A stretch of DNA of 63,801 nt, the filler included, from Trichodelitschia bisporula (lineage: Eukaryota), in assembly GCA_010356995.1 (NCBI GenBank). It is 4 parts of 4 records of this genome, joined end to end, with 100 filler letters (N's around TTAATTAATTAA, not from the genome) between each part and the next. Parts side by side here need not be neighbours in the genome. Positions count along the whole stretch, not along the records: positions 31,299 to 56,616 come from ML996716.1; 3 more parts are not named here. One strand, given 5' to 3'. Positions 20,437 to 59,659 of the stretch are shown here, in pieces; within the stretch, counting starts at the first letter, position 1; every line of letters begins with the position of its first letter. Made by a program: the position numbers and the translations under genes. Below the pieces are notes generated by a model. It made no database searches. It was not told where the DNA came from and saw nothing but the letters and a program-made list of their open reading frames with translations.

Positions 20437-23400
20437 TCAACCTTGGTCTTGAACCCATGAGGTGGGCCCGCTGAAGAACGCGATGGAGGTCAATTTTCGT
20501 CCAAGATTTCGCGCTCTATTATATCTTTGGACTCGCCATTCCCATCGAGCTGGCCAGGCCTCCCATGGTCCCCGATCCCAGGCTGACGAAACGCCAGCTA
20601 GCATGATCAACCACCTCATCGAGCTTACCCTCACCTTTAGGGCCGTGCTCTGGATCCCCCGTAGCCGAAATCTGCTGCAGTCAGCGTATTTCTTCCCCAG
20701 AAATCTCTTAGAGGAATCTCCTCTTAACGTACTACTCTCTCTGGCATGAAGCTTGACATGATCCCAGAGTTTTTTCCAGTCCGGGTAGCAGGTCTTCGCA
20801 CAGTAGGGACAAGGAAACGCCCCATCGACATCTCTGCAGCCCCCCTGCTCCCGCGTGGAATCAATAAAGCTGAGATGCCCCTTAACATGAGAGCTGAAGG
20901 GCTTCCAATGTCTGTAGATTCCCGCACAGTAGGGGCAAGGAAGCATGTTATTGGCATCTCGGCGAAAGCACTGCTCGCCATTGGCTTCCTTTCCCTTCTC
21001 TTTTTTGGTCTTGTCATCGGCTTCCTTTCCCTTGTCTCCTTTGATCTTGTCATCGGCTTCCTTTCCCTTGTCTTCTTCGCCCTCGTCATCAGCTTCCTTT
21101 CCCTTGTCTTCTTCGGCCTTGCTAACGGCATCCAACCCAGTGCCTCCATCCCCCTGGTTGCCAGGGAATGACTGGTTGACGTGCGCGTGTTGACGGCAGG
21201 GTGGGATATAAGCAGAGGTAATAGGGAGCGTGCTCGCGTGGCTGCTCGCCGCTGTGCCTCGAGGCTTTCCCCTGTCCTCTCCGCCCTCGTCGACAACTTC
21301 CGACCTAGTAGTACCTCCGCCGCCCCGGTCGCCAGGGAATGACCGGTTGACGGGCGCGTGTTGATCGGCGGGTGGGAAATAGGCAGGGGTAACAGGGAGC
21401 GTGCTCACGTGGCTGCGAGACTCTGTGCCTAGAGGCTTTCCCCTATCCTCTCCGCCCTTGTCGACGACATCCGACCTAGTACCTCCGCTGCCCCGGTCGC
21501 CAGGGAATGACCTATTGACGGGCGCATGATGACGGTGGGGTGGGATACAGGCAGGGGTAACAGGGAGCGTGCTCGCGTGGCTGCGAGACTCTGTGCCTAG
21601 AGGCTTTCCCCTGTCCTCTCCGCCCTTGTCGACGACATCCGACCTAGTACCTCCACCGCCCCGGTCGCCAGGAGATGGCTGGTTGTCGAGCGCGTATTGA
21701 TCGGCGGGTGGGAAATAGCGAAGCTTAATATAGGGTAAATTGTCGCGGCTGATTCCTATGCGCAGATATATTCCCATATCATCTTCGGCCGTTCCATCGT
21801 CTTCCTCGGCCTTGTCGACGGCATCCGACCCAGTGCCTCCACCGTCCCGGTCGCCAGGTGATGACTGGTTGACGAGCGCGTCTTGACGGTGGGGCGGGAC
21901 ATAGGGGGTGATGAAGAGCGTGGTCACGCCGCTGCGAGACGCTGTGCCTTCATCGCCCCGGTCACCAAGGAATGACTGGTTGATGAGCGCGTTTTGAGAT
22001 GGGGGTAGGAAATGGCGAATCCTAACGTATTGTGTATTGTCGCGGCTGATTCCCATGCGTGTTTCTACTCCCATATCACCCTCGGCCATTCCATCGTCTT
22101 CTTTAGCCTGGTTGTCGACAACCCACCCAGTGCTTCTACCGCCATTGACGTCAGGAATTGCTCGGTTGACGAGCACGAATGGACGGTGGGTTGGGATGGA
22201 GCGAGGGGCAACGTATGGGGTGTAGCTAGGGCCAGTGTGGGGTACGTTGTCGACGGCACCCGACCCAGTACCTCCACCGTCCCGGTCGCCGGGGAATGGC
22301 TGGTTGGCGAGCGCGTGTTGACGGTGGGGTGGGATATAGCCAGGGCCAATGTCGGGTACGTTGTCAACGGCATCTGACCGAATTCCTCCACCGCCCTGGT
22401 CGCTAGGGAATGACTGGTTGACGAGCACATGCTGACGGTGGGGTGGGATATAGGGTGCGTTGTCGCGGCTGCGAGATGCTGTGCTTGGAGTCTCTCCCCT
22501 ACCCTCTTCGGCCTTGTCATCGGCTTCTTTTCTGCAGTCCTCTTCGGCCTCCTCCACAGCATCCAACCAAGTTCCTATACCGCCAGGGTCCCTATGAAAT
22601 AAGTGGCCAACGAGCGCGTGCTGACGGTGCGGTGGCACATAGGGTGCGTTGTCAAGGCTGCGAAATGCTGTGCTTGAAAAATCCTCCCCGTCCTCTTCGG
22701 CCTTGCCATCGGCTTCCTTTCCACCATCCTCGTCGACCTCGTAAATTGTTTCCAAACTCTGGTTTTCTCCGGCCTCATCAACGGCGTTTTTTTCCTTGTA
22801 TTCTTCGGCCTTGTCAACGGCATCCGATCCAGAGCCTCCACCGCCCGGCTCTCCAGCAAAGAACTGCCCCATGAGCCCGAGTTGGCGGTAGGGTGGGATA
22901 TAGCGAGGTGTGTTGGAAGCATTGCGGCTGACTGATACTGCGCTTAGAAATCTTCCCCTATCTACTCCGGCCTCCTAAACCGTTTCCTTTCCTTTGTCCT
23001 CCGGGGCCTTTAAAGCAATATCCGACACACGGCCCTTCTCAACGGCCTCCGACCCAAAGCCCCTGCCAACGGCATCAGGCCCAGTGCCTCCAACGCCTTG
23101 GTCATCAGAGGATAACGGGTTATCGAGCGTGTGTTGAGGGAGGGGAGCGATGTAGCGGGGAGGGACCCATGGGCGAGAGTCGTAGCTAGGAGGAACATAG
23201 TGGCGGCGGTAGGGCTCCCAGCGGGGTCTCCAAGATCCTTCGCTTGGAGACCTCACCTTATCCCATTCGGCCCTGTCATATCCGCCGCGGAGCGAGAAAG
23301 TAACCGATTCACCATCCGCCGCATCGGCTTGATCCTCATCGGCGAACCTATTTCCGCACGATGGTTGATCAGAGCCAGTGCCTCCACCGCCTTGGTCAAC

Positions 23401-25899
23401 ACGTTGCTGAGGGTGAGGGGGCCTGGAGTGGGCAGGGATATTGGGGAGCCAGAGTTGCCAGATCTGGCTCCAAGGGTCTTCGCTTGGAGACTCTCCCCTA
23501 TCTTCTTTAGCCTTGCCCTCGGTTTCCTTTCCTTTCGCCTCTTGACTCCTGTCAACCTCATCCGGCCCATTTCCAGACGGCGGTTCCTCAGCTTCCTCTC
23601 CGCTGGTGTCCTCATCCGCAGAACCGTGTCCGGGCGGTGGTTGATCAGACCCAGTGCCTCCACCGCCTTGGTCATCACGGAACTGAGGGCTGGGGGGGCT
23701 GAAGTGGGGAGGTGGGCGGTTGTAAGCATCCCAGATGGGCCCGTAAAGTGATCTGCTTAGAGACTTCCCTCCGTCATCTTCGGCCTCGTCATCGGCTTCC
23801 TCTCCCTTATCCTCTTCGGCCTTGTCAACCGCATCCAACCCACCTCCAGGCAGCTTTTCTTCGGACCCATGTCCGCCGTGGTCTGAGGAAGCAATCAAAG
23901 TATCGTCCGAGAAAGTAATCGAATCCTCATCCGGCGTATCATCTTGCCTCGAACAGGCAGAACCGTGTCCGGACTCATCCCCACCCCGGTCCGAGATGGA
24001 ATACAAATCATCCTGCTCCTCCTCGTCAGGGCCGACTCCGGGCGATGGTTGAGCCTGGGGTGGGCTGTAGTGGCGAGGAATGTACGGGGCGTAGATGGAG
24101 GGGGTCTCTGGTTCCCGTCCGGTGCTTTGCGGTTCCGTGCATGGACAGTTGCGCAGCATGGCATCGTCCGCCGTCCTCACAATCCGAAGATCCCATGCTC
24201 TCTCCCCGCCGTGCGTAGGCTTGAACGGATCGCTGGGGCGCGCGAGCAAAAAAGGCCCAACGGGCGCCGGGTTAGGCGGGAGCAGAAGGTCGACTAGCGC
24301 GGGGAAATCTGACTGAGCGGGCGCCAGATCAGCGACAGTGACGTGAGGAACGAGGGCCTGGGCGGGTGTAGAGGGTTCCTCGCAGGACGTGCCAGTTGGT
24401 GTGGTCCAGGAGTTGAGTTGAACAACATCGTCATCTTCCTCTGAGTCTTCAGGAGTGAGTGTCAAATCCCACTCGTGGTTCGCAGCTAGGGTCAATTGTA
24501 TGAGCCAGGGGTATGTGCCCACCTTCGGCGCCGTTGTGGTGACGGGTGGAGCGGGCACCGTTTTGGTGACAGGCGGAGCGGGCTTCGGTGGGGCGGTGGA
24601 GGATTGAGAGGGGGTGTGCGGTCCCTTGCTCGGGCCGTGAGATAGTGCGCTCGGAGCGCTGCACGGAAGGGAGTTGTCTGCAGAGGAAGACTGAGCGCGT
24701 TCTGGCTGGCTCTGCTGAGCCACGGGAGGTTGCCCATGCTGAGGCACGAGCGATTGCCCATGCTGAGGCACAAACGGCTGGGCATGTGCAGACACGAACG
24801 AATTTCCATGCTGAGCCTTGAGCGGTTGGCCATGCGTAGGCACGTATGGTTGTCCATGCTGAGGCGCGAGCGGCTGACCATACTGAGGCACGAACGGATG
24901 ACCATGCTGAGGCATGAACGCTTGGCCATGCTGAGGCACGGGCAGCTGGTGACTTTGCCAGTAGCCCGGGAGCTGAGCAGGCCCCAATTGGCCATAATGA
25001 GGCTCGAAGGGGTTGTGAGGTGCGAATGGGCCCTGACATCCAAATGGGCCGTGAGGCCCAAATACGCCCTGAGGCCCAAATACGCCCTGAGGCCCAAATA
25101 CGCCCTGAGGCGCAAATAAGTGCTGAGGCGCGAATAAGTGCTGAGGCGCGAATGGAAACTGAGGCGCGAATGGATGCTGAAGGGGCGGGGGGTTGGAGCC
25201 GAAGCCGGGGGGTACACGGGGGACTTCGCGGGCAAAAGGGTCTGTCTCGTGGAAGCTGTACGCCCATTCGCGCTGAGTAGTGGCATCTTCCGGCCTTGCG
25301 AAATAGAAATTTGCGTTGCCGCTCCACACGGGCGGGGGCGGCTCGGTGGCTTGCCCTGGGAATTCGGGACCTCGCTGGCCATACTCAAATGCGTGGGGCT
25401 GTATGGGTGGTGAAGTTAGCCGCCGGCCGTGGGGTATACGGGGGACTTTGCGGGCGAAAAGGCCTCTCCGGTAGAAGTCGTGTGCGGATTCGGGTAGAGT
25501 AATGGCATCTTCCGGTCTTTCGAAGTCAAAATTTGCGTTCCCGCCCCACACGGGCGGGGGCGGCTTGGTGACTTGCCCTGGGAATGCAGGGCCTCGCTGG
25601 CCATACTCGGGCGCGTGTGAATGGATAGGTGGTATCGTGGGTCGCCCGCCGCGGGGCCAGAGATATGAGCTGGGCTGTGCGATGTTCGAGTCGGGATAAT
25701 GGGCTCCACCGGTTGTGGGACAAAGGGACCGACGTGTACCGGCTCCAGGACGGGAGGACTGACTTCTACCGGCTGCAGGACAAGAGGCCTGACCTCTACC
25801 ATTTGTAGAACGAGAGGAATGACCTCTACCGGTAGATCTCCCGGCGGATGGTTGGTTCTGAAGGTTCTCAGCGGCGTCTTTATTGCTAGACGGGTCCAT
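20437..25899 (-). CDS. Very large multi-repeat protein (FAPQ and PQHGQ repeats, ~50-60-aa Y[IV]PPHRQ repeats, two C-terminal C2H2 zinc fingers) interrupted by one in-frame TAG at 22977-22975
   Basis: ORFs 22975-26052 and 20437-22872 are in the same frame. The 34 codons between them are open (EAGVDRGRF...PRYIPPYRQLGL) and follow the repeat consensus. CPYC-x12-HVKGH and CPYC-x13-HVKLH lie at the C-terminus. Confidence 0.7.
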
Positions 25900-26857
25900 T
25901 GTAATAAGATAAAAACTAATGACGGGTAAATCTGCTTCTAGAACTAGTGATTGATGTTCTCGGTATGAATCTTGCTGTGAGACAATGAGGGCGGAGATGG
26001 TGTTTTTTTTCCATCTCTGTTGGCAGGTGGAAAGAACGGTCTTGACGATCATACAGCCAGACTACTTTCTTTCCGTTTCTCGCAGTATGCAAGTGCTGTA
26101 GGACCGCGATGCAAGTGGCACTGACCTAGCAGTCGTGGCGGCCACGGCGCTCGTGGTGACTGCCAAACACAACCGACCGTTCTGGACCGCCGAGCAGGGG
26201 AGATAGGTCCTAATCCCATCCCGGGGAGTGTGAAACCTCGCACTTGGTTAAGTTAGCTTTGCAGAGTATGTGTATCAGTGAGAATACCCAGGCTAAATGA
26301 TATTCGAAGACTTGTGTCCCTGCAAGTGGCGTCACGGATAGCCTTACACGTGATCTCCTCTCTCAGCCTCGTCCCTCATCTCTCAAGCCCTGATCAAGAT
26401 AATACTCACCCACCTTCTCAATAAGCCCGGAGCACACTCCTAGCCCCCAGCTGCGTCATCGGCCTGCAGCCACCAATTACTTTTACCATTTAGATTTACA
26501 CGTCACTTCATTCAGCACATACGGCCATAGGTCGGAGAATGCAACTACGTTCGCGTTCCCAATTTGGTAAAACTCTGAATTTAGACTAGCGTCAGACATC
26601 CTCTGTCGTCAGGTGGCGAATATTGTACAATTAAAGTTGCCATTATTAAGCGCGGGACTACGGAAGGGAACTGTCGATTCTGCTTTTCAACTTTTCAAAA
26701 CTTCAGGACGACGAATATGGCGTCCTTAGATGCCTTCGGTAGGGGCGCTGTTAGATGGTCCTTAGGAGGGCTGGGAGGCAAACTGCTTAATGCTCTGACT
26801 TAAATCTCCCCGAAGACCAGTGCGGGTTCAGAAGTCAACCTTCTGCCCTCGATCTCA

Positions 26858-27658
26858 ATGTCGACGCACAACTTCGCTCACCTTCTCTCTAGGCTGAAAA
26901 GCCTCCGATATTCCTAATGGAGATGCACTTTTCAGTGACCCTAAAAAGTGTATGGCGGAGGCTGACCCTGAGCTGGTTATGTTGTTCCTGAAATGGACTC
27001 TGGACACGCAAACGAGAATCCGAAAAGGGATAACTATTACGGCCTACTATGACCGGGTGGCACGCCGCTCAAAGGCAAATGCCACATCACCGAATGTGGA
27101 GCCTTGAGTACAGGAAGCGGGTTCTTTCAGTAAGAAACTCATCTTGATAAACTCAAAACTAATTTTGTATAGTTCATCTCTTTGGATTCAGCCTCTGAGC
27201 ATGGACTCAGTAGAGAACGGCAGCCGAAGCCTGTCCTAAGCTTTGCCGATATGGCCATCCTTCTCAACCACCTTTGGAAATGGGACAGGCTGCAGTATAC
27301 CAACGAGAGATTACGAGTCCAAGTGGCCTTGGTTATACTGATTTCGATGACTACGGCAACAAGGCCAGCGGCATTGCTAGAGCCGGTGTACGCCAAACAA
27401 GGTCATGGGGAACTACCCAAAGTTCTTCGTTATGAGCATGTCAGGCTCCTTAGTCCGCGATTCCGAACGGATGAGACAAAAGTTGGTTCTGGGAATCAAC
27501 CTTGTCTTTCACAAAGGATACGAGCGAAATCCCAGACCGCAAGTAACTTCAGTTTGGCATTTACATGCTAATAATCTTCTACAAGAACCACCCGCATTCT
27601 TACCGAGATAGAGGAGCCCATCTTTGATCCTAGAATACTCCTGCTGGTTCTCGCATTC
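26858..27658 (+). pseudogene. DUF3435 tyrosine recombinase (Starship 'captain') 5' fragment, frameshifted and truncated
   Basis: KPVLSFADMAILLNHLW...NERLRVQVALVILISMTTATRPAALLE...LRYEHVRL/LVRD...LVLGINLVFHKG, then EEPIFDPRILLLVLAF. These match the catalytic-Arg and KG blocks of DUF3435. It has an internal deletion relative to copy B, frameshifts, and ends at an LTR. Confidence 0.8.
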
Positions 27659-27799
27659 TGTTAAAATGAAGTGCGAACTTGACTGAGTTGCTTGATCGAC
27701 TAGCAGTGGAAAGTGAGCTGACGATATACCTCGCCAGGAGACGACCCCTGTCTCCTGGCTCCGCTCCAGCCACCCCAGGTTGCCGCCACAAATTCAACA
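27659..27799. mobile_element. 141-bp LTR-like element (TGTTAAA...TTCAACA) with mismatched flanks CATTC/TATCT
   Basis: Homologous to 54576-54716, which has a perfect TATCT target-site duplication. Confidence 0.75.
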
Positions 27800-28253
27800 T
27801 ATCTCCTCCATCAGAACAGTCTGTATGCTCCGTCTGTCCCTCACTGCTCTGCCAAACTCCCACCCAAAACCATGACCGCCACTCCGGCATCCTCCTGAGC
27901 CTGTTTATGCTCGAGCCCTGGCCAGTCTCGATATCTCGTACAGCATCTACGACGCGGGCACAGACGACGCAAGCAGCGTGGGCGGTGCAACATGGATAAA
28001 CAACCGGGTATGTCCTCCAGCGAAGTCTTCGTCTATGAACTGATCAGTTCGTAGGAGAACTTGATGCCCCGTAGCATGTGGCTGTGTCTCCAATCTCGTC
28101 CTCTCCGCGCCCGACAGCTCACAGCCTCATTCTTGGCATTCTGCCCCGCAGTTGAGCTCAGCTCGAAGCCCCAAAGCCTCGCCTTTAACCTCCAGTTCCA
28201 CTCCTGCATTTTCACAAGTCCGCAATTTCTTGACTAGCATCATTATTTCCAAG

Positions 28254-31198
28254 ATGCCACCTGCAAAGCGAATCCGGGCACGGGGCCACTTCTGTGCCTC
28301 TTCCGGCCTTTCACGACCCTCCTCACCTGTTGCTGGCGAGACCACCACGCCTGCCCCCGCGAGCAGTGTCGGCCAGACCTTATCTTTACCACTTGCCCCT
28401 CAGAGAGCCACTAACAGTGGGCCAGCCCGCCGACTTCGTCATGAAGACTATACAATAGGATGGATATGCGCTCTACCGATGGAACTTGCGGCAGCTCAAG
28501 AGATGCTAGATGGGGAACATCAGAGTCTCCCTCAGAACGCGGCTGATTCCAACGTCTATGTGCTTGGCTGCATCGGTGGACATAATGTCGTGATTGCGTG
28601 CCTACCCGTAGGCCAAATGGGAACCAATGCGGCAGCCTCGGTTGCTGCCCAGATGCAGTTGGCATTCAGCTCTGTCCGGCTCGGCCTGATAGTGGGCATC
28701 GGAGGTGGTGTGCCGAGCACAGCTGATGTACGGCTTGGGGATGTCGTCGTCAGTCAACCGTTCAAGGATCATGGCGGAGTAGTGCAGTACGACTTCGGCA
28801 AGACGACACCAGACAAGTTCGAACGGACTGGATCCCTCAATTCTCCCCCACAGGTCTTCTTGAAGGCGATAGCAAGCCTAAAGGCCAATAACCTCCGAGA
28901 GAGAGTCGGGTTCTTACACTCTCTTTCGAAGCTCGCCCAGTACCCAAGATTTGCACGGGACGAAGCCGGACCAGATGATTTATACCACGTTACCTACAAT
29001 CATGAGGGAGGACCTGACGACTGCCAGAAGTGCCGGAAAGAGTACGTGGTACGGCGGCAGCCGCGCGGCGAGGATGTTGTTGTCCATTACGGCACCATAG
29101 CCTCCGGGAACCAAGTCATGCGCGATGCCAAGGAACGAGACAAAGTCAGCAGGAAGCTTGGAGGCGTACTCTGCTTTGAGATGGAGGCGGCGGGGCTCAT
29201 GAACAGTTTTCCGTGCCTTGTTGTGCGGGGAATATGCGACTACTCTGACTCGCATAAGAACAAGAGCTGGCAGCCGTACGCGGCGGGGACGGCGGCAGCG
29301 TACGCTAAAGAGCTTCTATTGTTGGTTCCACCGGCCAAAGTCGAGATGCCAGAATATCCATCCGCGCCGGCAATGCTCCTAAACTTGCCCAGGGCTGCAG
29401 ACACACCATCCAACCCATACGAGCGGAAAAAAGCGTCTTGCCTGATTGGTACCCGGGTCGAACTTCTCAAAGAGATCTACGGCTGGGCTTACGGGGAGAA
29501 TTCGCCAAATATTTTCTGGTTGAGTGGTTTAGCTGGCACCGGCAAGTCCACCGTGGCTCAAACTGTGGCCGCTGAATGTTTTCAGAAGGGAAGGCTTGGA
29601 GCCAGCTTCTTCTTCTCGCGAAGTGGCGCAGATGTCCGGCATGCCGGCAAGTTCGTGACAAGCATCGCAGCGCAACTTGCAGACAATGTGTCGGGGGCAA
29701 AGCAGTCTCTCTACAAGGCACTGGAGGAAAGGGATACCATCACTGAAGAGCCTATCCGCAGTCAGTGGCATCATCTCATCCTCGGTCCCATGTCGAAGCT
29801 TGAAGGCGACACCTCTGCTCCGTACATCCTGGTAATCGATGCCCTGGACGAATGCGAGGGCGAGGACGCCATAAGGGAAGTTCTGGATCTCTTTCGGTTG
29901 CTGAAGAAAACCCGGCTCCGGTTGTTTTTAACGAGCAGACCTGAAGTGCCAATCCGATCTCCGTTATCCGAAATGCCAACAGGCGAGCACCTGGACTGTG
30001 TGCTCCACAGAATTGAGAAGTCGACTGTTGACAATGATATCCGCTTCTTCCTACGACACGAGTTCGAAGGTCTAGCCCGGGAACGCTCTGTTGGCAAAGA
30101 TTGGCCAGGCAAGCAAGTCATCGACACCCTTGCCCAGAAAGCCAGTGGCCTGTTCATCTGGGCTGAAACCGCATGCCGCTTTGTTCAACAAGGCAGAACA
30201 TTGGCACCCAAGAGACTGCGCTTGATCCGCGACCAAGGCCATAGTGCTACGAAAGGGCCAGAGCAGCATCTCGACGAGATCTACGCGACTGTTCTTCGCC
30301 AATACTTTTCCAACTATGACGATGATGTGGAGGAGCTGCGATCGACACTAAAGGAATTGCTTGGAACCATCGTGATCCTGTTCGATCCACTTTCGATCAT
30401 GTCCTTGAGCGAGCTACTCATCCAGAATGTAGCTCTGGCACTGGATGACCTTCACGCCATTTTGGACATTTCAAAGGAACCAGGCGACTCACTCCGTTTA
30501 CATCACCCTTCGTTCCGTGACTTCATTCTCAATCCAGAGAGAAGCGGGAAAACAGGACTCTGGGTCGATAAAGAGGAGGCGCATCGAGCCCTTGCCACGA
30601 AATGCATACAGGTAATGTCTAACTTCCTCAAGCAGGATATGCTTGGAATAGGTCGGCCTGGAGTACTCAAGACTGAGATCGAACGTCATAGGGTTGAAGG
30701 GTCCCTCCATCCTGAGAAGCAGTATGCATGCCTCTACTGGATACAGCATCTTCATAAGAGTGGATCTCAGCTCAATGATGACGGTGAAGTTCATCAGTTC
30801 CTGAAGGAGCATCTCCTTCATTGGCTTGAGGCGCTTGGATGGATGCAAAAGGTTTCCGAAGGGTTCCATGCCATCGTGTCTTTGGAGTCCATGATATTGG
30901 TAAGCTGGACGTAAAGCAGAGTGGGGATACTTGGCTGATACTTGGCTCAGGCGCAGAGGTGTCCCCGACTATCGGAGTTTGTTCATGACATGAAACGATT
31001 TGTCCTCTACAACCGGTCAGCCATCGAACTAGCTCCCTTGCAGACATATTGCAGCGCGCTGGTATTTTCCCCGACAGCAAGTCTTGTAAAAAGGCGGTTT
31101 CAAAGCAAAATGCCTCTGTGGATGCCCGGACTACCGCAGGTTAGGGACAACTGGGATGCCTTGCTGCAAACGCTCGAGGGCCATTCGGGGTCGGTCTT
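28254..31198 (+). CDS. NLR: PNP_UDP_1 (purine nucleoside phosphorylase) - NACHT - WD40 (HET-E-like), truncated by the gap; intron 30900-30950
   Basis: DYTIGWICALP, VGIGGG, RLGDVVV, CFEMEAAG, RGICDYSDSHKNK; Walker A WLSGLAGTGKST; Walker B ILVIDALDEC; TSRPE; GLFIWA; HHPSFRDF; YACLYW; first WD40 LQTLEGHSGSV. Confidence 0.93.
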
Positions 31199-31298: not shown

Positions 31299-34221
31299 CA
31301 TTTTCGATTCGATTGCAACGATGCGCTCGAATAGCTCGATCGCCTCGCCTATTCGCCCGTCTTTAAGGTATGCGCTCGCGAGTTGGTGCTGCGATCCTAG
31401 ACGGTCTGAATGATCTTCCCGCAGTACTTGCGATTGGATTGCAACGACGCGTTTGAGTAGCTCGATCGCCTCGCCTATTCGCCCGTCTTCAAGGTATGCG
31501 CTGGCCAGGTAATGCTCCGAATCAAGAGTTGCTGCATCATCTTCTCCGGAATTTTCTTTTCTCCATTTGAAAACTTGCTCATACCAGTATATACACTCCC
31601 GGAGTCTCCTATCCCACATAAAGAAGTGCCCAAGCAGCTTGCATAGGGTGTAATGGCTGGCCAAGTCTTCGCCCTGAGCAGATTGAGCAACTTTTAACGC
31701 GTGGGGCAGGTATTCTCGACACATCGGCATGTTGTCATAGCTGTCCTGGGCATCTGGAAATGCATCCGCAAGGTGCTCCACCGCCTCTTTTCTCGCCTCC
31801 TCTTTCACCAGGGGATGCTTGTCAAGCCAAATCTTGGTCGCCTTTTGCACGAGTCTGTGCATGTCGTACATGTCTTCGTCCCGTTTGGTGAAGAAAGCGT
31901 ATCCAAGAAGGGTACCAATGGCCCTCACCAGTTGTTCTTCGGGCGGCACTAGGGGCAAGATCGACCGAGGTATCGCCTTTGGCTCAATGTAAGACACGAA
32001 GGCAAGGAGGTCGGCAGCTGTTTGATCCGTCAGGCGAATGTGCTCGAACGACACAATCCATGTGTTTGCAATGGCGTTTGGAGCGCCCCGGGGTCGTGTG
32101 AGGTCGAGGAACTCGGCGCTCATGAGATTGGACATATCTTGGTCGGTATTCCTCAGGAGGTGCAAATATCTGGAGATCGACAGCTTGTTTCTGTTGAGGT
32201 AGGCTGCTGCTTGTGCGATCGCCAAAGGGAGGAATGCCAGTTCAGTCAAGAGCTCGTCCGTGATCGAAGGTTTGGAAAGCAAGGTTTTGTCAAGCAAGGA
32301 ATTTGCCAAAAAGTCAAGCGAGTCTCTCTTGCTCATTTCACCCAGTGAAATGGCTCTATCACGCCCCAGGTCCTCTGCAATTTGCCTTACACGCGTTGTG
32401 CAAAGGACAAAGCCGTTCGCGCTTTTCGGAAGAAAATAGGCAATATGCATGGACGGATCGGCGGATAGAGAAAAGATATTCGCGTCGTCGACGTTATCAA
32501 CAATCAAAAGCCAGGGCCCTGCCATTTCGCCACTTAGGTACTCCTTCACCAACTCCTTCACGTCCTTGTCCTTTTCGTTCTCTGAAAGGATCGACAACTC
32601 CCTTGCGATACTGGAGCAGTCTTGAGTAAAGATTGCCGCGCTCACAGCGGAAACCCAAAATACAGAGCACTGAGGATGGTTCTCTTTCACCCAGTAAGCG
32701 AACTGCAAGGCGATTTGCGTCTTCCCAGTGCCGCCGAGGCCGTGAATTGCCACCATTCGGTTGGTTTTGTCTGCGAAGAGGCCTTGGACCTTCGCGAGCT
32801 CAGCTTTCCTGCCGACGAAGTTTTCGTTTGGTTGAGAGGGAATGAAATAGGTCGCTTTGGGGGCACAATCTTAGACATTTAGTCAGGCTGCAAAGCAACT
32901 TAGGTTTGACGCTCACCTTTGGATGAGCCATCCATGGCTAGCCGAGGATCCTCAGGCAGTCGAGAACCAATTTCAGGTGACCGGGCCAAGTCAGTATTAG
33001 CCGTTGCAATGAATTTAAAGACTTACTCCACTAGCCTCCAGTGCATCACGGATCGTGTTTAGGACCTTCAGGTAATTGGAATCTTGTCTGCTGGTGTATT
33101 TGCAAACACCATGATGATCGGCCTGCAAGGACATGTACATTTCCCCGGTACACATAAGTCTAGCCGAGCCTTTGTCCACGACCTGAACCTTGCCCGGAAA
33201 CTTGCGGCTCAGTTGGGCGAATAAGGGGGTCTCCAAAGTCTCCCAGAAGGACGCAAGAAAAAGCTTGCCCGTGTGGTGGCGGAAACCTTCGTTAATGGTT
33301 TCCAAGGTCTCCGAATTTCGTTCCAGACTGTGCCTAAACTGGGTGTCTGAAAGGACGACTGACACTGAAATGAGCTTCCCGAGCAATGGGGCCGCGTCAG
33401 AGCCGATATGGGGCGTCGACAGAAAGATCATAGCATTGACGGAGGAGCCGATTCGGAGGTATTTTGGGTTGCTTTGGGCATTTAGGGCATCGATGTATGC
33501 TTTTTTCACGACCAACCCTCCCATTGAGTGGGCAACAAACAGAATAGGCATGGCTCCGATTTCGTGGCTTTCGCCTGTATCATTATTTCGGCTACGAGCC
33601 ATCAAGGCCAGTAGGTCCATGGCGAAATTCCCAATAGTCTGGTTGTTGGCTTCGGTCGACAGCCAATCCGCGTTGTATCCAAAGGTGAAAATCCTGGCCT
33701 TTTCCATGCCAAGCTCTTTCGGAAGCCATTCACCTGGCCAGAAGAGCTCCGGTGTGCCGTCTTTGGCCCAGGTTGCATGGCTTGAACCGCCTAGTCCGTG
33801 AACGAATATGATATCCACAGCGGGAGAACCGCTTGGCGCCGCGACGAGGGTTAGGGTGCGCAAGTTTGGTAGCGATGTGGGAACAACCGTCTCGCGGCCT
33901 GTGGGGCCGGGACTCGACGATGATCGTGGCACGCGCTGCTCGCTGGGCTCGGTGGAGGGCTGGCCGACGGAGGGACGGAGTGCGACATGATTATCAGCTG
34001 CGCCAGACTTGGTCCCGTCACCGGCTTCATCGCGTTTCTTGCCAGGTTTAGGCCTTAGTATGTTCCGAAATTTTCTCTTGAACACAGTTAGTAAGGACCA
34101 AAAGCAATGGTGGAAAGAGCTCAGATACAGTGAATACAACTGCACCACAAATGGGAGTGAAAACGGCATACATCGGCCTTAAGGAGCAAGGGCAGTTGTA
34201 GCGAAGGAGAATACGTACCAT
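31299..34221 (-). CDS. NLR: alpha/beta-hydrolase (SesB-like/PGAP1-type lipase) - NB-ARC - TPR, multi-exon, truncated by the gap
   Basis: DIIFVHGLGG, FWPGEWLP, RIFTFGYNA, FVAHSMGGLVVKKA; Walker A HGLGGTGKTQIA; WLLIVDNVD; FLPLAIAQAAAY; MHRLVQ; 42-aa TPRs (LASAYLEDGRIGEAIELL). ATG 34221 is followed by a GTACGT intron (34218-34077); further introns lie near 33026-32870. Confidence 0.9.
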
Positions 34222-50882: not shown

Positions 50883-51959
50883 GAGGATTTGTTGCTTCAT
50901 TCGCGTGTGAGGCGGCCGTTTTTCTTGCTATGAAGTCGTGTATCAAGCTTTCCAAATTCTGTATGCCACTTTCGATCTTAATGATGAAGAGACAGCGCAG
51001 AGAAGAATACAAACCTTTGAAGCGGCATAGTTGAATTCGATTTCAAAGCTGCTCGCACCCTTTCAGGGGCTCCCTCCCCGTTCCCAAAATCTTACCACGG
51101 ACCTCCGCAAGCCGTCGTCTTCATCACGACCGGCCGACAGGCTGACTGATCCAGCGCAAAACACGCTTACACTGCTCATGCCACCACCCCACAGGCTTTC
51201 AACTCCCGCCAGTCTCCATCCCCGGCCATTTTACGGACCTCACTTCTCACGTACGCGACGCCCCCACCGACGCCCACACATTTCAACCCCTTTTCACCTT
51301 CCCGGCACCATTTTGCGTCCTCCGAGCTGCGCCGTGCCTCCCAGACAGCACCCGCTCTCCCTACTCCTGATATGGACCACCGCCATCGTCTTCCACGGCG
51401 CGAATCCCGCCGGCCATGTCCGTCCCACCCCTCGCCAAAGTATCTTTCCCCGAGCCCCCAGGGACAATGGGCAGGCCCGGCCAAATTTGTGCGCGTCCGG
51501 GTGTGGGGTGGGATATGCCGTCGGGGCCGTTGAGTCGATAGGGGTGAGGCGGAGGAGTGAACGACGGGTACATTAAATAATGTTACCAGTATATCAATTT
51601 TACTGCAATCAACCAGCACATACGGCCATAGGTCGGAGAATGTATCTATGGTCGCGTCCCAATTTGGTAAAACTCTGAATTTGCACTGCCGTCATATATC
51701 CTTTGTCATTAGGCTTGGCGAATATCGTCCAATTAAAGTTGCCATTATTAAGCGCGCGACTACGTAAGGGAATTGTCGATTCTTCTTTTCAACTTCTCAA
51801 ATTTCCAGGACGACGAATAAGGCGTCCTTAGATGCCTTCGGTAGGGGCGTTGTTAGATGGTCCTTAGGAGGGCTAGGAGGTAAACTAGTTAATGCTCTGA
51901 CTTAAATATCCCCGAAGACCACTGCAGGTTCAGAAGTCAACCTTCTGCCCTCGATCTAA

Positions 51960-52724
51960 ATGTCGACGCAAAACTTCGCTCACCTTCTCTCTAGGCGGAA
52001 AAGCCGCCGAGTGGAGGCAAGATACTCAAAATCGTCAAAACACAACCTGAGCCGAACCCACCATCAATGGAAAGAGTTCTGTGAAGCTGCACGAACCTCC
52101 GATATTCCTAATGGAGATGCACTTTTCAGTGACCCTGAAAGTGTATGGCGGAGGCTGACCCTGAGCTGGTTATGTGTTAGACGGATTCCCATTTGTTACA
52201 GCCTTCTGATATTGTAAGTTCCTGTATCACTTCGCGCTCGGTATCTTTGTAGCCGGTATCCGTTAGCGCTCGGGATTGCTTACCTCCGTTGTCTTGTTTC
52301 ATCGTATCTTTGACGCGACGCCACTCCCGTTTCATACTTCCTATATAGTACGAGTTGCCCACATGGTACACTCGACAGTTCAGTCTACGTCAATCAACAG
52401 AAACCTTTGTTTCATCTGTTCTCAGCTTCTTCAATCCAACATTATGTTGTTCCTGAAATGGACTTTGGACACGCGAAAGGGAATCCGAAAAGAGATAACT
52501 ATTAACGTCTACTATGACCGGTGGCACGCCGCTCGAAGACAAATACCGCATCACCGAGTGTGGAGCCTTGAGGACAGGAGGCGTGTCAATTCAGTAAGAG
52601 ACTCATCTTGATAAACTCGAAATTAATTTTGTATAGTTCATCTCTTTGGATCTAGCCTCTCAGCATGGACTCAGTAGAGAACGGCAGCCGAAGCCTGTCC
52701 TAAGCTTTGCCGATATGGCCATCC
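51960..52724 (+). pseudogene. DUF3435 captain N-terminal fragment, interrupted by a solo LTR and truncated by a second LTR
   Basis: MSTQNF...HQWKEFC...SDPESVWRRLTLSWL|MLFLKWTLD...IRKEITINVYYDRW, then an intron, then FISLDLASQHGLSRERQPKPVLSFADMAIL. Homologous to 26858-27260. Confidence 0.75.
52175..52441. mobile_element. 267-bp solo LTR with 5-bp TSD TTATG
   Basis: TGTT...AACA termini; TTATG at 52170-52174 and 52442-52446. Copy A has the empty site (GGTTATGTTGTTCC). Confidence 0.9.
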
Positions 52725-52960
52725 TGTCGGCATACCCGATGTCGTGTTACCCAGAAAGGCAGGCTTGGCACGGCGAACACCGAAGTGGCCAAGATGGACG
52801 ACGCCGGAAGTCCGATGGACGACGCCGGAAGTCCGATGAAGTTCAGGAACATCCTGGAGACCCATCACGGATATATACTGTTCATTCTGTAAACTAGAGA
52901 AGGCAACAAGCTGGGCAATCAATCTTTTCTCACACAATTCTTTGAGCACTTCCGCCAACA
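52725..52960. mobile_element. 236-bp LTR (TGTCGGC...GCCAACA) without TSD
   Basis: Imperfect terminal inverted repeats and an internal 21-bp duplication. The left flank is captain sequence (CATCC) and the right flank is copia RNase H (TCTGC). Confidence 0.7.
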
Positions 52961-53364
52961 TCTGCCCCATGTATTCCGCTTCGCATGATGACAACGCAAC
53001 AACACTCTGGCGCTTCGATGATCAGCTTACTGCTCCACTGCCGAGGTTGAAGATGTATCTGGCCGTTGATCGCCTCGTGGATGAATCCCCAGCCCAGTCA
53101 GAGTCGGTGTAACCAGCCAGAGCCTCCAGCGATCCGCGGTACACAAGTTCCACCTCCATGGTGCCCCGAAGGTAGCGAACGATCCTCTTGACCGCCGTTT
53201 CGTGCTGGGGTCCGGGGTTCGCGAGGAAGCGACTGCAGATGGAGACAGCGTATGCGATGTCGGGTCTAGTACCAAGCATGGCGTACATGAGGCAACCGAT
53301 CGCTTTGGCGTACCAGGTCTTGAGGCTCTGAGGGGCCTGGAAGTCATCGGGTGCTGGCACGATC
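52961..53364 (-). mobile_element. Ty1/copia pol fragment (RT end to RNase H start)
   Basis: IGCLMYAMLGTRPDIAYAVS, GYTDSDWAGD, RRST, then a stop, then SSKRQSVVALSSCEAEY. Confidence 0.93.
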
Positions 53365-53964
53365 TGTTAAAAGGGGGTGTGTGGTCAATGGAAACTGTTG
53401 AAAGGGTGATGCGTGATCAACAGAAACGTCACTGCATCACAAGTTGGACCGAAGGTCTGTCCATGAACAAGTTGCTTAATTGTCAAAGAGGTGGGGATCC
53501 CGAGTCTACTTATACCCGAGCCCTGTGGCTGAACCTGGGTAAGGCTGAACACAGCCACCGCTTTCCAACACTCCCCCTCAGACGAAACCCAGTGAAAAGG
53601 CGAGGGGTACGCTCACAAAGACACGAAGCTCCCATATGGACAGACGGCCAGGCCTCGTTAAAACCCTCTGTGAGGGAAAGAGTGCCTGGACTTGCACAAG
53701 GAGGGGCGGCAGATAGATTGATCCTCATGGTTCCCTTCTCCCCCTCACCTGGTGCGAGCCCATTCAAGACCCAATGCCTCCCTGAACTGTTCGAAGCGAT
53801 CCTTTGGCAAGGCTTTTGTAAGGCCATCAGCAACCCGCTTCTCTGGAGGTCAATCTCTCCGGATGCCTGCTTCTCCCTGACGTAGTGGTGCTGAATGCCT
53901 ATGTGCTTTGTTCTCGGGTGAAACTGCGGGTTCTTGGCCAGGGCGATCGCTCCTTGGTTGTCGC
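53365..53964 (-). mobile_element. Ty1/copia 3' end: RNase H C-terminus, polypurine tract (53580-53571) and 3' LTR (53570-53365)
   Basis: Minus strand DNQGAIALAKNPQFHPRTKHIGIQHHYVRE...ADGLTKAL, then TGAGGGGGAG directly followed by TGTTGG...TTAACA. Confidence 0.9.
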
Positions 53965-54137
53965 TGTTGGAATGCGGTGGCTGTGTTCAGCCTCACCCAG
54001 TTCAGCCACAGGGCTCGGGTATAAGTATACTCGGGGTCCCCACCTCTTTGACAATTAAGCAACTTGTTCATGGACAGACCTTTGGTCCAACTTATGATGC
54101 TGTGATGTTTCCATTGATCATACATCCCCTTTTAACA
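53965..54137 (+). mobile_element. Second copy of the same copia LTR in inverted orientation, no TSD
   Basis: TGTTGGAATGCGG...TTTAACA is the reverse complement of 53365-53570, with an internal deletion. Confidence 0.88.
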
Positions 54138-54575: not shown

Positions 54576-54716
54576 TGTTAAAATGAAGTGTGAACATGAC
54601 TGAGTTGCTTAATTGACTAACAGTGGGAAGTGAGCTGACTATATACCTCGCCAGGAGACGACCCCTACCTCCTGGCTCCGCTCCAGCCACCCCAGGTTGC
54701 CGCCACAAATTCAACA
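54576..54716. mobile_element. 141-bp solo LTR with 5-bp TSD TATCT
   Basis: TATCT-TGTTAAA...TTCAACA-TATCT. Confidence 0.82.
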
Positions 54717-55176
54717 TATCTCCTCTATCAGAACAGTCTGTATGCTCCATCTGTCCCTCACTGCGCTGCCAAACTCCCACCCAAAACCATGACCGCCACT
54801 CCGGCATCCTCCTGAGCCTGTTTATGCTCGAGCCCTGGTCAGTCTCGATATCCCGTACAGCACCTACGATGCGGGCATAGACGACGCAAGCAGCGTGGGC
54901 GGTGCAACATAGATGAACAACCGGGTATGTCCTCCAACGAAGTCTTCGTCTATGAACTGATCAGTTGGTAGGAGAACTTGATGCCCCGTAGCATGTGGCT
55001 GTGTCTCCTTCAATCTCGTCCTCCTCTCCACGCCCGACAGCTCACAGCCTCATTCTTGGCATTCTGCCCCGCAGTTGAGCTCAGCTCGAAGCCCCAAAGC
55101 CTCGCCTTTAACCTCCAGTTCCACTCCTGCATTTTCACAAGTCCGCAATTTCTTGACTAGCATCATTATTTCCAAA

Positions 55177-56616
55177 ATGCCACCTGCAAAGTGGATCCGG
55201 ACACGGGGCCGCTTCCATGCCTCTTCCAGTCTTTCACGACCCTCCTCACCTGTTGCTGGTGAGACCATCGCACCTGCCCCCGCGAGCAATGTCAGCCAGA
55301 CTTCAACCTTACCACTTGCCCTCCATAGAGCCACCAACAGAAAGCCAACCCGCCAACTTCGTCACGAAGACTACACAATAGGGTGGATTTGCGCGCTCCC
55401 GATTGAACTTGCAGCAGCCCAGGAGATGCTCGATGAAGTGCACCAACCTCTTCCCCAGGACGCGTGCGATCCTAATAGCTACACGCTCGGCCGCGTTGGC
55501 GAACGCAATACGGTGATCATGGTCTTGGCGCGGACGGGCACAAACTCGGCCGCCTCGGCTGTTGCTCGTATGAAGTCTACCTTCACTTCGGTTCAGCTCG
55601 GCGTCATGGTCGGCATCGGAGGCGGTGTGCCAAGCCCAAAAGTCGACATCCGGCTTGGGGACGTTGTCGTTTGCGAACCGTCCAAGGATTGTGGCGGAGT
55701 GATTCAGTACGACTTGGGCAAGACCAGGCCGGGCAGAGTTGAACGAACTGGATACTTGAACGCACCCCCAGAAGCCTTGCAGAGCGCGCTGGCGAGTCTG
55801 AAGGCTGGCCATCTGAAAGGAAGAGTTGGTTTCCTAGATCATCTTGCAAAGCTCAGCAACCAGCCCCTTTTCGCTCGCGACAAGGCTGGGCCCGATGTCC
55901 TATACAACGCTGTGTACAACCATGAGGAGGGGGAGGAAAACTGCAACAATTGTAAGGAAGAACATAGCGTGCGGCGCCAGACACGTGGCGAACATGTCAT
56001 GGTTCACTACGGTACGATCGCTTCGGGGAATCAAGTCATGCGCGATGCCAAGGAACGCGACAAAGTCAGCACGAAACTCGGAGGCGTCCTGTGCTTCGAA
56101 ATGGAAGCCGCCGGGGTGATGAACAGTTTTCCATGCCTGCCTGTGCGGGGAATCTGCGACTACTCGGACTCTCACAAGAACAAGAGCTGGCAGCCATTCG
56201 CGGCGGGGACGGCGGCAGCGTACGCCAAAGAGCTTTTGTTGTTGCTTCCGCCGGCCAAAGTCGAGATACCAGAAGATCCACCACCACCTGCGCCGGCAAT
56301 GCTCCTAAACTTGCCCAGGGCCGCAGACACACCATCCAACCCATACGAGCGGAAAAAAGCGCCTTGCCTCACTGGTACCCGGGTCGAACTTCTCAAAGAA
56401 ATCTACGCCTGGGCTTACGGGGAGAACTCACCAAATATTTTCTGGTTGAGTGGTTTAGCTGGCACCGGCAAGTCCACCGTGGCTCAAACTTTGGCCACTG
56501 AATGTTTTGAGAAGGGAAGACTTGGAGCCAGCTTCTTCTTCTCGCGAAGTGGCGCAGATGTCCGGCATGCCGGCAAGTTCGTGACAAGCATCGCAGCGCA
56601 ACTTGCAGACAATGTG
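55177..56616 (+). CDS. NLR: PNP_UDP_1 - NACHT (paralogue of the 28254 gene), truncated by the gap
   Basis: DYTIGWICALP, VGIGGG, CFEMEAAG, RGICDYSDSHKNK, WLSGLAGTGKST, GASFFFSR. Confidence 0.92.
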
Positions 56617-56716: not shown

Positions 56717-57811
56717 CGTTCATAACGCCTTGGCTGTCATCGGCCTCGGGGCAATGTCGCCACATAAGGAGCCGAAATCGGTAGCATTCGAAGATGCCGT
56801 ATCTATGCTCAGTTTTGAAGACATGTTTCATTCGGTCTATCAAGCTCAAAATCGCCACGTTCCTGTCCGATTCGTTGGTGAGTTGAGACTTCGCATATGC
56901 CTCAAAAAGGCGTTGAACAAAGTCAACGGTGCGTGTGTAACCTGACTTGTTTAGTCGTTCAGGAAACCTTGGGTCGAGAAGAAAATATTGCCTGAGAGGG
57001 AGACTGCAATAAATCAGTCAAGCTATCGAAGAGAAAAAATCACACCAGACGTAATGAAATCGAGCCTTACCTTTGAAGTTTGACAAGGTTTTGGCAGCGC
57101 ACACCGTCACCACACTCAAAGTACGTGTAGTTTGCAGTAAAATGAAGAGTTCGGCGAGATAAAGCTCTTTCTTGCAGTACCCAGGCTCTTTTTTGAAGTG
57201 GGGAGGCATCCGCATCGTGCTCGAAGTTTTGAGGAGGAACTGGGCCACGACAAACATATCGCGGTTTGCGAAAGGTGGTTCTGCCTTTGTCATAACGAAT
57301 ATGACGCGGCGGAAGGAATCCTTCCTCCCAGTTCATAGCTGAGCTGGCGGCGAGGGTACAATAAGCTGAATTGAAGACCAGTGCCATGAGCGGAGCTTCA
57401 TCTTCCCAGTCTTTGCTGTCTTCGCCCGATATCGATTGGATAATGCAGAGAGCATCGATCCAAAGATATTGTATTCCAAGTTCCCGCGTAACTTGGACAG
57501 CATCCCGAAAAGTTTTCGGCAAGTCACTTTCGAGGAATCCTGATTTCCGACATTCGTAATTTTCTGAGGTAGTGCAGAATTTCTTTTTGTCATCGTCCGT
57601 TGGGCCACCCCAGCGATGAGAAAGTGCAAGATAGCCGCCTGTACCTGCAAGCCTGCTTTCTTTTGATTTCGTCTCCCAGAGCTCCAACTTGGAATCCGGA
57701 GGACCGACGAAGACGACCCTAGTAGGCCAGGAACGTTCCACCGAGTCGCATTGGTGCTCATTGTCACATGTTTGGAGCCATTGGCGCAGTAGTACAAAGT
57801 ACAAGGGATTC
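56717..57811 (-). CDS. HET-domain protein (partial; ends lost at gaps)
   Basis: WPTRVV, YLALSHRWG, LPKTFRDAV, YLWIDALCIIQ, DWEDEA, AYCTLAA, RAWVLQERALSRRTLHF. After an intron: FLLDPRFP...LTNESDR...YGIF...LLMW. Confidence 0.9.
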
Positions 57812-59659
57812 TGAGACGTTAATACATGAGAAGACGTCTTTGAAAGTTGGTGAGCGTTAAAGAATTCAGCCGCAAATTTATTGTCCTTACGGGGCGTCCA
57901 GATCTTTTAGTCGTATAGTCAGTCACCACAACTTGACAGAGGTTAAAAGCAACACTTGACTTACATCCTACACCNNNNNNNNNNNNNNNNNNNNNNNNNN
58001 NNNNNNNNNNNNNNNNNNNNNNNNNNNNNNNNNNNNNNNNNNNNNNNNNNNNNNNNNNNNNNNNNNNNNNNNNNNNNNNNNNNNNNNNNNNNNNNNNNNN
58101 NNNNNNNNNNNNNNNNNNNNNNNNNNNNNNNNNNNNNNNNNNNNNNNNNNNNNNNNNNNNNNNNNNNNNNNNNNNNNNNNNNNNNNNNNNNNNNNNNNNN
58201 NNNNNNNNNNNNNNNNNNNNNNNNNNNNNNNNNNNNNNNNNNNNNNNNNNNNNACGGTCAGCAATCATCGCATCTTGTCCATATCAAGTAGGTCCACTTA
58301 CCTCCTACATCGGCACTCAAGATTAGCTAGTCAGCCTGACCTGAATTATCTTTATGCATACCCACTAAATTCGCATTACATCTGGGACTTCATCTTCGAC
58401 TTGCGCTTCATACGTACTGTGAAACTTCCATGGGGGCCTTTAACAGTATAAAGGCGATCCCGGAGTACCTTCAACCTTTCTTTCAAAATATTGGGCATCC
58501 TAGTACCGTTTCAGAAATCGAACTGTGTTTCGTCATAAGGCTACGAATTTGAGCGTTGGGGGGACGCGAGGTAGGGGACGGCACTAGGGCTCTACTTGAC
58601 TTAGCCGGGAACGACGCCAAGATAGGCACAGCTGAACACTTCAATTCTTTTGAGCGAGGTGCAGCGGAGGGACAAGGTATCCTGGTAGAGAGCAACCTGT
58701 TAGCAACACCTGCGCGGAGGCTATGTCCTCAGACTGGGACTTATAGCGGGCTAGCCCTTTAGAGCTGAAGCGCAAGCGGCCAGCCACTCTACGTATCATA
58801 CCTGAAAGCTTCTTTTCAAAAACGCCATTTAACCTCTTTTACGTCCCAAAGCGGATGCAGCCTGCGTCTAGCTTCACCTCATAAGAGTCAAAAAATCTGA
58901 TAAACTTATCATCCTATCTAGATGGTATTCATAATTAAGATTGCGAGTAGATTCAGACGAAGACTGCGAGTGACGACGGCGCCTAGTAGCCGTTCGACCC
59001 CCCTTACAGCCCGCGTGAAGTTCCTCTTAGCTCCTAAGTATTCTACCCGTGGATTTGCTCAGTTTATAAACCAGTGTAAGGCGTTGAACGTCACGATCGC
59101 AGCACGGCTGCTCTGTATTCGGGCCAGCCGAAAAAGTTTTAGGCTGCCCCCTGGACTGAATTTACGGAGAGTGGGGGGCATAACTTTCGGCCTGCCGTAG
59201 GACTTACACGCCGCGAGGCAGCGCGAACCGCAAACCGCAATCATTAGACTCCGAATAAGCGACTTAAATATCAACAGCCCTCTCCCTCCCTCCATACCGC
59301 CCCTCGCAGATCATCTAGCTCTAGGGTAACGACCCTGCAATGGCGCTCCGAAAAAGTCCCTGCTGTTCTCAGCGCCGCTTTCGCCGAGGAGGGTGGCTAT
59401 AACATAACGCTCCCTACCTCAGCGGCCGCGGAAGAGGCTTAAGAGAGCTCTTATGTTCTAGGTTGGTATTAACGTGAAAAGCTCAAGGACGAATCATGTA
59501 GTACGTGTACGCCCCGCGCAGGACGGGAACGTGGGATTCGCAGATACGGGCGGCGAGACGTAAGGCAAACGAAGTATGTCTGGCAATGTAGGCACGGCAG
59601 AATAGTAGCCCAAACAGCATCTATACCAGTATGCACCATCGCCATATTATACCACACCC

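Follow-up and report, generated by a model that had tools for sequence, protein, structure and literature searches.

Mosaic PNP cores in near-identical NLR genes within small 5S rRNA gene-splitting elements of Trichodelitschia bisporula

Two NLR genes and the elements around them

The analysed stretch of Trichodelitschia bisporula DNA (63,801 nucleotides, filler included; hereafter the window) consists of several contigs joined by N linkers. Positions 1-31198 are the end of contig C27 and carry an NLR gene with its ATG at 28254, here named copy A; a second NLR gene with its ATG at 55177, copy B, is found where contig C30 ends. The two contig ends truncate both genes (Table 1). Copy A runs through 882 codons to an intron and the first part of a WD40 exon, and copy B is an open frame of 480 amino acids cut inside the NACHT domain. 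Both copies match PF01048 (PNP_UDP_1) above the Pfam cut-off (E = 4e-13 and 2e-8). The NACHT NTPase of copy A, with P-loop and Walker B, matches PF05729 and PF24883; copy B is cut past the P-loop region. The 82 amino acids of the WD40 exon left in the window gave no Pfam match, and PF00400 (WD40) matches were obtained on the paralogous proteins P0005 (above cut-off) and P0004. The best named protein matches (79-89% identity) carry the source label Trichodelitschia bisporula, and the top matches outside this species come from other fungi (53-55% identity).

Table 1. Position of features in the window that belong to the two NLR copies and their elements
Feature	Position	Strand	Evidence
5S rRNA gene bases 1-18, left junction of element A	26517..26534	+	5S comparison
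Captain-type left end of element A with truncated, frameshifted DUF3435 stub	26535..27658	+	translation; 89-96% to captain loci
Solo-LTR-like repeat with unlike flanks (CATTC / TATCT), joining captain stub to NLR leader	27659..27799	+	sequence read
Copy A 5′ leader, 47-bp intron at 28008-28054	27800..28253	+	alignment
Copy A exon 1: N-terminal extension, PNP_UDP, NACHT, next helical region	28254..30899	+	PF01048, PF05729, PF24883
Putatively donor-derived PNP tract (subfamily D) in copy A	28534..29255	+	informative sites; A+D in PNP tree, 97/99
Short resident-type patch within this tract, 5 of 6 A-type copies	29123..29145	+	informative sites
51-bp GT-AG intron preceding WD40 exon	30900..30950	+	joint on paralogue L068 in both putative RNA runs and neither DNA run
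Start of WD40 exon, cut by end of C27	30951..31198	+	WD40 matches on paralogous proteins only
5S rRNA gene bases 1-18, left junction of element B	51618..51635	+	comparison with intact 5S genes of the genome
Captain-type Starship left end of element B with interrupted captain stub	51636..52725	+	89-99% to DUF3435 loci
Broken retrotransposon pieces, lying between captain stub and NLR leader	52960..54137	-	three-frame translation
141-bp solo-LTR-like repeat (TGTT...AACA), TATCT at each side	54576..54716	+	sequence read
Copy B 5′ leader, 47-bp GT-AG intron at 54925-54971	54717..55176	+	96.7% identity to copy A
NLR copy B: N-terminal extension, PNP_UDP domain, NACHT start	55177..56616	+	open frame; PF01048, PF24883
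Putatively resident (B-type) PNP core, flagged by the sequence-only reading	55457..56175	+	clusters with 12 other in-frame copies, 91/99

Upstream of the leader, each window copy starts with a captain-type left end that follows a 5S stub (26517 and 51618) and holds a broken DUF3435 stub. In element A, PF11917 matched this stub at 27251-27538 with an E-value of 1.5e-4, under the cut-off. The solo-LTR-like repeat that joins the stub to the leader has unlike flanks here, pointing to a deletion that ran from one such repeat to another. The retrotransposon pieces of element B, which we take to be Ty1/Copia by their motifs, include an inverted repeat (53396-53570 / 53965-54137). The window also holds another NLR gene, with a lipase-like domain (DUF676/PGAP1), NB-ARC and TPR repeats (31299-34178, minus strand, cut by a contig end), two HET-domain genes (PF06985; 48999-49661 on the plus and 57070-57906 on the minus strand) and two adjoining open frames of 845 and 1028 amino acids on the minus strand (20437-26061). 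The latter are built of internal repeats and gave no Pfam match above cut-off.

Two putative RNA runs of one sample (X3 and X4) were used for splice joints only, beside two DNA runs (X1 and X2); none of the runs listed is recorded as RNA. On the paralogue L068, X3 and X4 show a GT-AG joint spanning the 51-bp NLR intron, and X1 and X2 do not. Joints over a captain intron were seen as well, and in X4 also one over a leader intron, again on L068. By these putative RNA runs, some member of the family is transcribed and spliced.

DNA searches of the genome delivered at least 58 and at least 41 matches, from which 40 stretches were taken. Together with the two window copies, 35 carried the PNP anchor and 29 were aligned; six gapped or partial stretches (L073, L076, L078, L091, L092, L094) were left out. 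Nineteen aligned copies have the leader and N-terminal extension in common, here called the frame, and each combines it with one of two PNP cores: type A in six (window copy A, L060-L063 and L071), type B in window copy B and 12 more. In L069, L070 and L071, which are among these 19, the PNP domain is interrupted by a stop or frameshift. Subfamilies D (L080-L082), E and F differ from the frame copies in leader and NACHT.

The NLR copies sit in elements of 5.5-8.4 kb, measured from the left end to the first right junction with scaffold gaps included, which split dispersed 5S rRNA genes. RF00001 has 47 matches in the genome; at the Rfam gathering score no 5S gene was found in the window itself, the stubs being 18 bases long. 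The shared unit has sharp ends. Near-identical captainless left ends occur 13 times, 12 of them preceded by 5S bases 1-18 and the 13th by a partial stub, and no captain match was found behind them. The 200-bp flanks of the captainless elements show no relationship to one another (best local score 14). At their right ends the elements pass into the remainder of the 5S gene, and 5S bases ~10-18 recur at the left and right junctions as a direct repeat. Of 30 intact 5S genes, 29 have base 18 paired with its helix partner. The same pairing across the insert, from base 18 of the left stub to the partner position of the outermost right remnant, holds in 13 of 16 elements (Fisher p = 0.04; tallied by hand and leaving out L061, after which a second element follows), among them all six cases where the right junction's own base fails. 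This indicates that each remnant pair derives from one split 5S gene. Among seven elements examined for terminal inverted repeats, 11/11 bases match in L060 and L075 and four more show near matches; at the captain-type end of L068 the repeat matches in 13/14 bases. There are thus two end types, each with its own inverted repeats. None of the 11 DUF3435 matches, of which the best candidates were scored, showed an intact captain. In this one genome, movement was presumably brought about by a captain acting in trans.

Several further arrangements were observed at 5S sites. At L064, L065, L068, L095, L149 and L154 a unit of ~250 bp with its own end motif lies at the first right junction, ahead of the 5S remnant; this unit may represent either a tiny element of similar type or the right end of a larger element around it. 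The right ends of L060, L063, L064, L076, L077, L097 and L143 have in common a stretch of ~450 bp (5S remnant and spacer) that ends in a complete 5S gene, so that such elements may restore the interrupted gene; tandem 5S genes on C19 (L106) are separated by this same spacer. L143 (C1:1194061-1195843) is a ~1.3-kb element with a captain-type left end, an NLR-type right end and no gene inside. At L145 (C13:327387-329460) a 5S stub is followed by a second captain, divergent and with another left end, which is interrupted by the same 141-bp solo-LTR-like repeat as in the window copies. Dispersed 5S genes (L100-L129) vary at bases 15-21, the insertion site, with compensating changes on the partner strand, which could reflect escape from targeting.

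Mosaic structure of the PNP domain

The sequence-only reading had described copies A and B as almost identical in upstream DNA and at the start of NACHT and as heavily diverged between, synonymous sites included; the peptides quoted for this are found in the sequence. Alignment of 27659-29690 with 54576-56616 bears out this picture, with identities of 90-100% upstream, 54-78% in the PNP core and 92-100% at the NACHT start. Upstream non-coding DNA differs at 3.3% of sites. By the Nei-Gojobori method, the N-terminal extension has a dS of 0.16, the PNP core one of 1.97 (differences at 98 of 141 synonymous sites; dN 0.27) and the 3′ part of PNP one of 0.69; over the 103 codons of linker and NACHT start dS is 0.08 (6 of 75 sites; dN 0.03). 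Five rate segments are favoured over a uniform rate (BIC 1473 against 1671), so the rate is not constant along the gene. The first ~55 codons had been called almost identical as well; this has to be corrected, as 27 of 187 bases differ over the first ~60 codons.

Separate trees, both unrooted, conflict. In the PNP-core tree (29 rows) type A groups with subfamily D (97/99) and B stands apart, whereas the NACHT trees place A and B copies together, intermixed within a single clade (98/100, and 100/99 with window copy B), and D outside it. Forcing A with B in PNP (27 rows, leaving out L087 and L083) was rejected by the AU test at p = 0.00028, and forcing A with D in NACHT (21 rows, leaving out the long branches L087 and L079) at p = 0.0004. 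Mean core distances are 3.3% within A, 7.9% between A and D, 9.4% within B, 33.8% between A and B and 34.0% between B and D; at the NACHT start they are 5.5% for A-B and 27.8% for B-D. As the B-D distance is similar in PNP and NACHT, B and D look like old paralogues in each of these domains. On this comparison of sequences, the A copies are B's frame carrying the core of D, and we regard the mosaic as real.

All six A copies are B-like up to 28448, mixed up to 28533, D-like up to 29255 and B-like again from 29285. The left breakpoint zone (28449-28533 in copy A, 55372-55456 in copy B) is thus an 85-bp mixed stretch with no single point, and the right zone lies at 29256-29284, equivalent to 56176-56204 in copy B. 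The sequence-only reading had placed these breakpoints at ~55340 and ~56200-56290; the informative sites shift both. The two zones lie inside the PNP domain, at the motifs IGWICALP-ELAAA and HKNKSWQP. Between the 215 sites diagnostic for B and D, the right zone is the longest gap (29 bp, 3.3% of the domain), with a run of 22 bases that is identical in window copy B and L080, and the left zone holds the second and fourth longest gaps. The placing of breakpoints in conserved motifs is suggestive in these alignments, long gaps between diagnostic sites being length-biased. The replaced tract comprises ~0.75 kb of the PNP core, and catalytic motifs are retained. An effector-domain swap had been proposed from the sequence. 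Its core, replacement by recombination, stands; but PNP was exchanged for PNP within one domain family (the two PNP_UDP domains are of the same class and 72% identical), with breakpoints inside the domain and no change of class.

Within the replaced tract, the B-type patch is absent from L061. The leaders of the A copies form no clade (AU p = 0.0001) and their N-terminal extensions do (87/93). Our reading is one capture followed by amplification and then by ongoing exchange that fades toward the divergent core.

Other copies are chimeric at other points. In L087 (C29:1-2800, minus strand) the frame leader, N-terminal extension and first ~56 PNP bases are fused at ELAAA to PNP and a P-loop domain that match a family on C10, C15 and C5 at 88-89% identity. 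By its motifs the P-loop domain reads as NB-ARC, and judged from this sequence the NOD class was changed by one crossover. In L083 a frame N-terminus passes into D sequence, which gives way to E near the GIGGGVP motif; L079 has a B-type PNP ahead of a foreign NACHT. L068 differs from window copy B at 5 of 844 bases and then from the A copy L060 at 0 of 196; it is a probable chimera by sequence, with an assembly artefact possible for this copy alone, and none of the 32 contig pieces listed spans the junction. At L099 (C26:217555-217787) a lone B-type PNP fragment of 233 bp lies beside a solo-LTR-like repeat without a frame leader, and short pieces similar to it are found on C24 and C25. Compared with L060, L080 and L084 are 88-99% identical over the last ~370 bases before the WD40 array and 60-75% in NACHT, a 3′ likeness that resembles the concerted evolution of WD40 NLRs.

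Direction of replacement and rival explanations

Diversity and parsimony on the unrooted trees argue for a transfer from D into the B frame, as the in-frame diversity of B exceeds the distance between A and D. The imported tract would then lie in the copy at 28254, and the stretch flagged in the copy at 55177 would be of the resident type. The claim of recombination with another PNP paralogue is hence upheld by a donor lineage in the genome and by conflicting trees, and the recombinant has to be moved to the other copy. The D copies are on average 7.9% away from A, and the exact donor is absent among extant D copies; therefore either the event is of some age or the assembly lacks the true donor.

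We consider it highly probable that a PNP-NACHT-WD40 frame multiplied in 5S elements, that the core of one copy was replaced from subfamily D and that this copy was then amplified. In this course of events, the NLR gene and its leader would have multiplied inside small 5S-targeting Starship-type elements, and one copy would have been repaired from a distant D paralogue by ectopic homologous recombination that began and ended in the best-conserved PNP motifs; gene conversion is the presumed route. The recombinant would then have multiplied to at least six type A copies beside at least 13 of type B. Leader, NACHT and short PNP patches are still exchanged between copies, and the 34%-divergent core would resist exchange, which would explain why two old cores persist in near-identical frames.

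Conversion of the flanks, named as an alternative by the sequence-only reading, is also acting, as seen in the upstream regions of the six recombinant copies. Extended to a full account, it would make A and B old paralogues whose leader and NACHT were homogenised with no import of a core. The scattered A leaders and the intermixed A and B NACHT sequences fit this, as do the last ~370 compared 3′ bases, which D and E share with the frame at 88-95%. A D-type gene would, however, have to be overwritten on both sides out to both element ends, as against one tract of 0.75 kb; a stretch that looks like an intron between PNP and NACHT in D is absent from the A copies, D-type residues are absent from all A flanks, and one shared pair of breakpoints was found. 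Homogenisation accounts for the upkeep of the pattern and not for its origin, and as an explanation of the whole it is improbable. The reverse direction, with A resident, B taken from an unsampled donor and the PNP of D derived from A, draws on the unrooted trees, on the lone B-type fragment at L099 and on the derived state of B, with its deletion of two codons and loss of a widely kept proline. Two events would be required, however, in-frame diversity is greater in B than in A or between A and D, B-D divergence is similar in PNP and NACHT, and 54 matches yielded no full-length B-type PNP outside the frame. We thus hold this direction to be very unlikely.

Hardly any weight is left for positive selection on the PNP domain, for RIP or for an assembly artefact. 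The assembler evidently struggled here, since the WD40 arrays are gapped and each of the two genes stops at a contig end; yet the A-type junctions recur at six places on four contigs and no A copy is identical to any D copy, and an artefact was rejected for these junctions by their recurrence. The 194 core differences between A and B comprise 117 transitions and 77 transversions, with little bias in direction (64 against 53), the frames are open, and the core dN/dS is ~0.14. Neither RIP nor positive selection explains a divergent core of this kind, and both were rejected on this site pattern and ratio.

Predicted function and relation to known systems

Structure models of the A and B PNP domains gave confident folds (pLDDT 89.2 and 89.8), and the A model matches MTA/SAH nucleosidases in Foldseek (E = 1e-14). 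The acidic residues E17, E251 and D269 are conserved in the alignment and present in both types, and ELAAA and EMEAAG keep their glutamates and RGICD its aspartate in A and B alike. In the alignment, the loop that follows strand 3 is two codons shorter in type B, and among the two missing residues is a proline that at least 90% of 52 aligned sequences retain. The shortened loop aligns with the bacterial SGIGK loop, which presumably lines the 5′ group of the substrate. Both types most likely remain nucleosidases and perhaps differ in kinetics or substrate range. By analogy, ATP nucleosidase is the likely activity of both, as ATP nucleosidase activity and toxicity to E. coli have been demonstrated for the PNP domain of a fungal NLR (Cap17-like; 10.1101/2023.01.24.525353). 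Our genes resemble these effectors in the N-terminal PNP on an NLR, the MTA/SAH-nucleosidase fold and the acidic motifs; they differ in the shortened loop of type B, and nucleosidase activity is here predicted from sequence and model.

Domain shuffling in NLRs and 5S-targeting Starships have both been published, and the present case is a variant of the two. Similar NODs with totally distinct classes of N-terminal domain were reported by Dyrka et al. 2014 (PMC4986451, Table 2). Near-identical NACHT sequences with discordant N-terminal domains, incongruent N-terminal and NOD trees and the PNP_UDP-NACHT-WD40 architecture are common to both studies. In contrast to the cases described there, PNP replaces PNP here with breakpoints inside the domain, donor lineage and breakpoints are resolved, and the recombinant was amplified afterwards. 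In Podospora, NWD/HNWD genes exchange WD40 repeats between loci, possibly by ectopic gene conversion and in association with transposable elements (PMC13449251). Dispersed NACHT-WD40 genes linked to transposable elements exchange sequence in both fungi, but here the exchange involves effector core, leader and NACHT, and lineages 34% apart. The account of domain assortments in PMC12258605 leaves Starships unmentioned. In our literature search, which was of limited coverage, no published work on replacement within a PNP domain with a mapped donor was found, and the match on gene-conversion breakpoints in NLRs came from Arabidopsis only.

The Starship Voyager inserts 20 bp into 5S genes and spans 74-124 kb with 10-47 genes (10.1101/2021.12.13.472469). 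Targeting of 5S genes arose at least five times among Starships (PMC11162782), and NLRs are common cargo (PMC10104507). The elements described here share with these Starships the insertion ~20 bp into 5S genes, direct and inverted end repeats and NLR cargo, and with Voyager, in some copies, a left-end DUF3435 captain, here as a broken stub. The giant size (27-393 kb in the founding Starship paper) and many cargo genes are not found in units of 5.5-8.4 kb with one gene. Unlike Voyager, they also have 13 captainless left ends with their own inverted repeat and are stacked at one site. The sole small Starship in the literature search was the engineered mini-Hephaestus. No published natural one-gene 5S elements lacking a captain were found, though the supplementary element tables of Starship papers could list some, nor did this search yield a paper on non-autonomous Starships in 5S rDNA. 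Among the titles listed for Trichodelitschia, none concerned NLRs or Starships.

Fungal NLR shuffling has mostly been inferred from protein trees, whereas in this one genome the recipient can be seen together with the donor lineage, the breakpoints and the patches added later. The pattern points to homology in conserved domain motifs as a route of shuffling, and L087 indicates that the same route can switch the NOD class behind a promoter. A wider proposal, which we put forward as tentative and rather doubtful, is that captainless mini-Starships serve as an NLR diversifier: a single promoter-leader-NLR cassette would spread over dispersed 5S genes, its copies would recruit effector cores, NACHT domains and an entire PNP-NB-ARC gene of other subfamilies by crossovers in conserved PNP motifs, and selection would keep two functionally different cores in the same frame. 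The A and B cores form a natural pair in one frame for comparing substrate or toxicity of PNP domains, and NLR expansion in this fungus is linked to small 5S-targeting elements.
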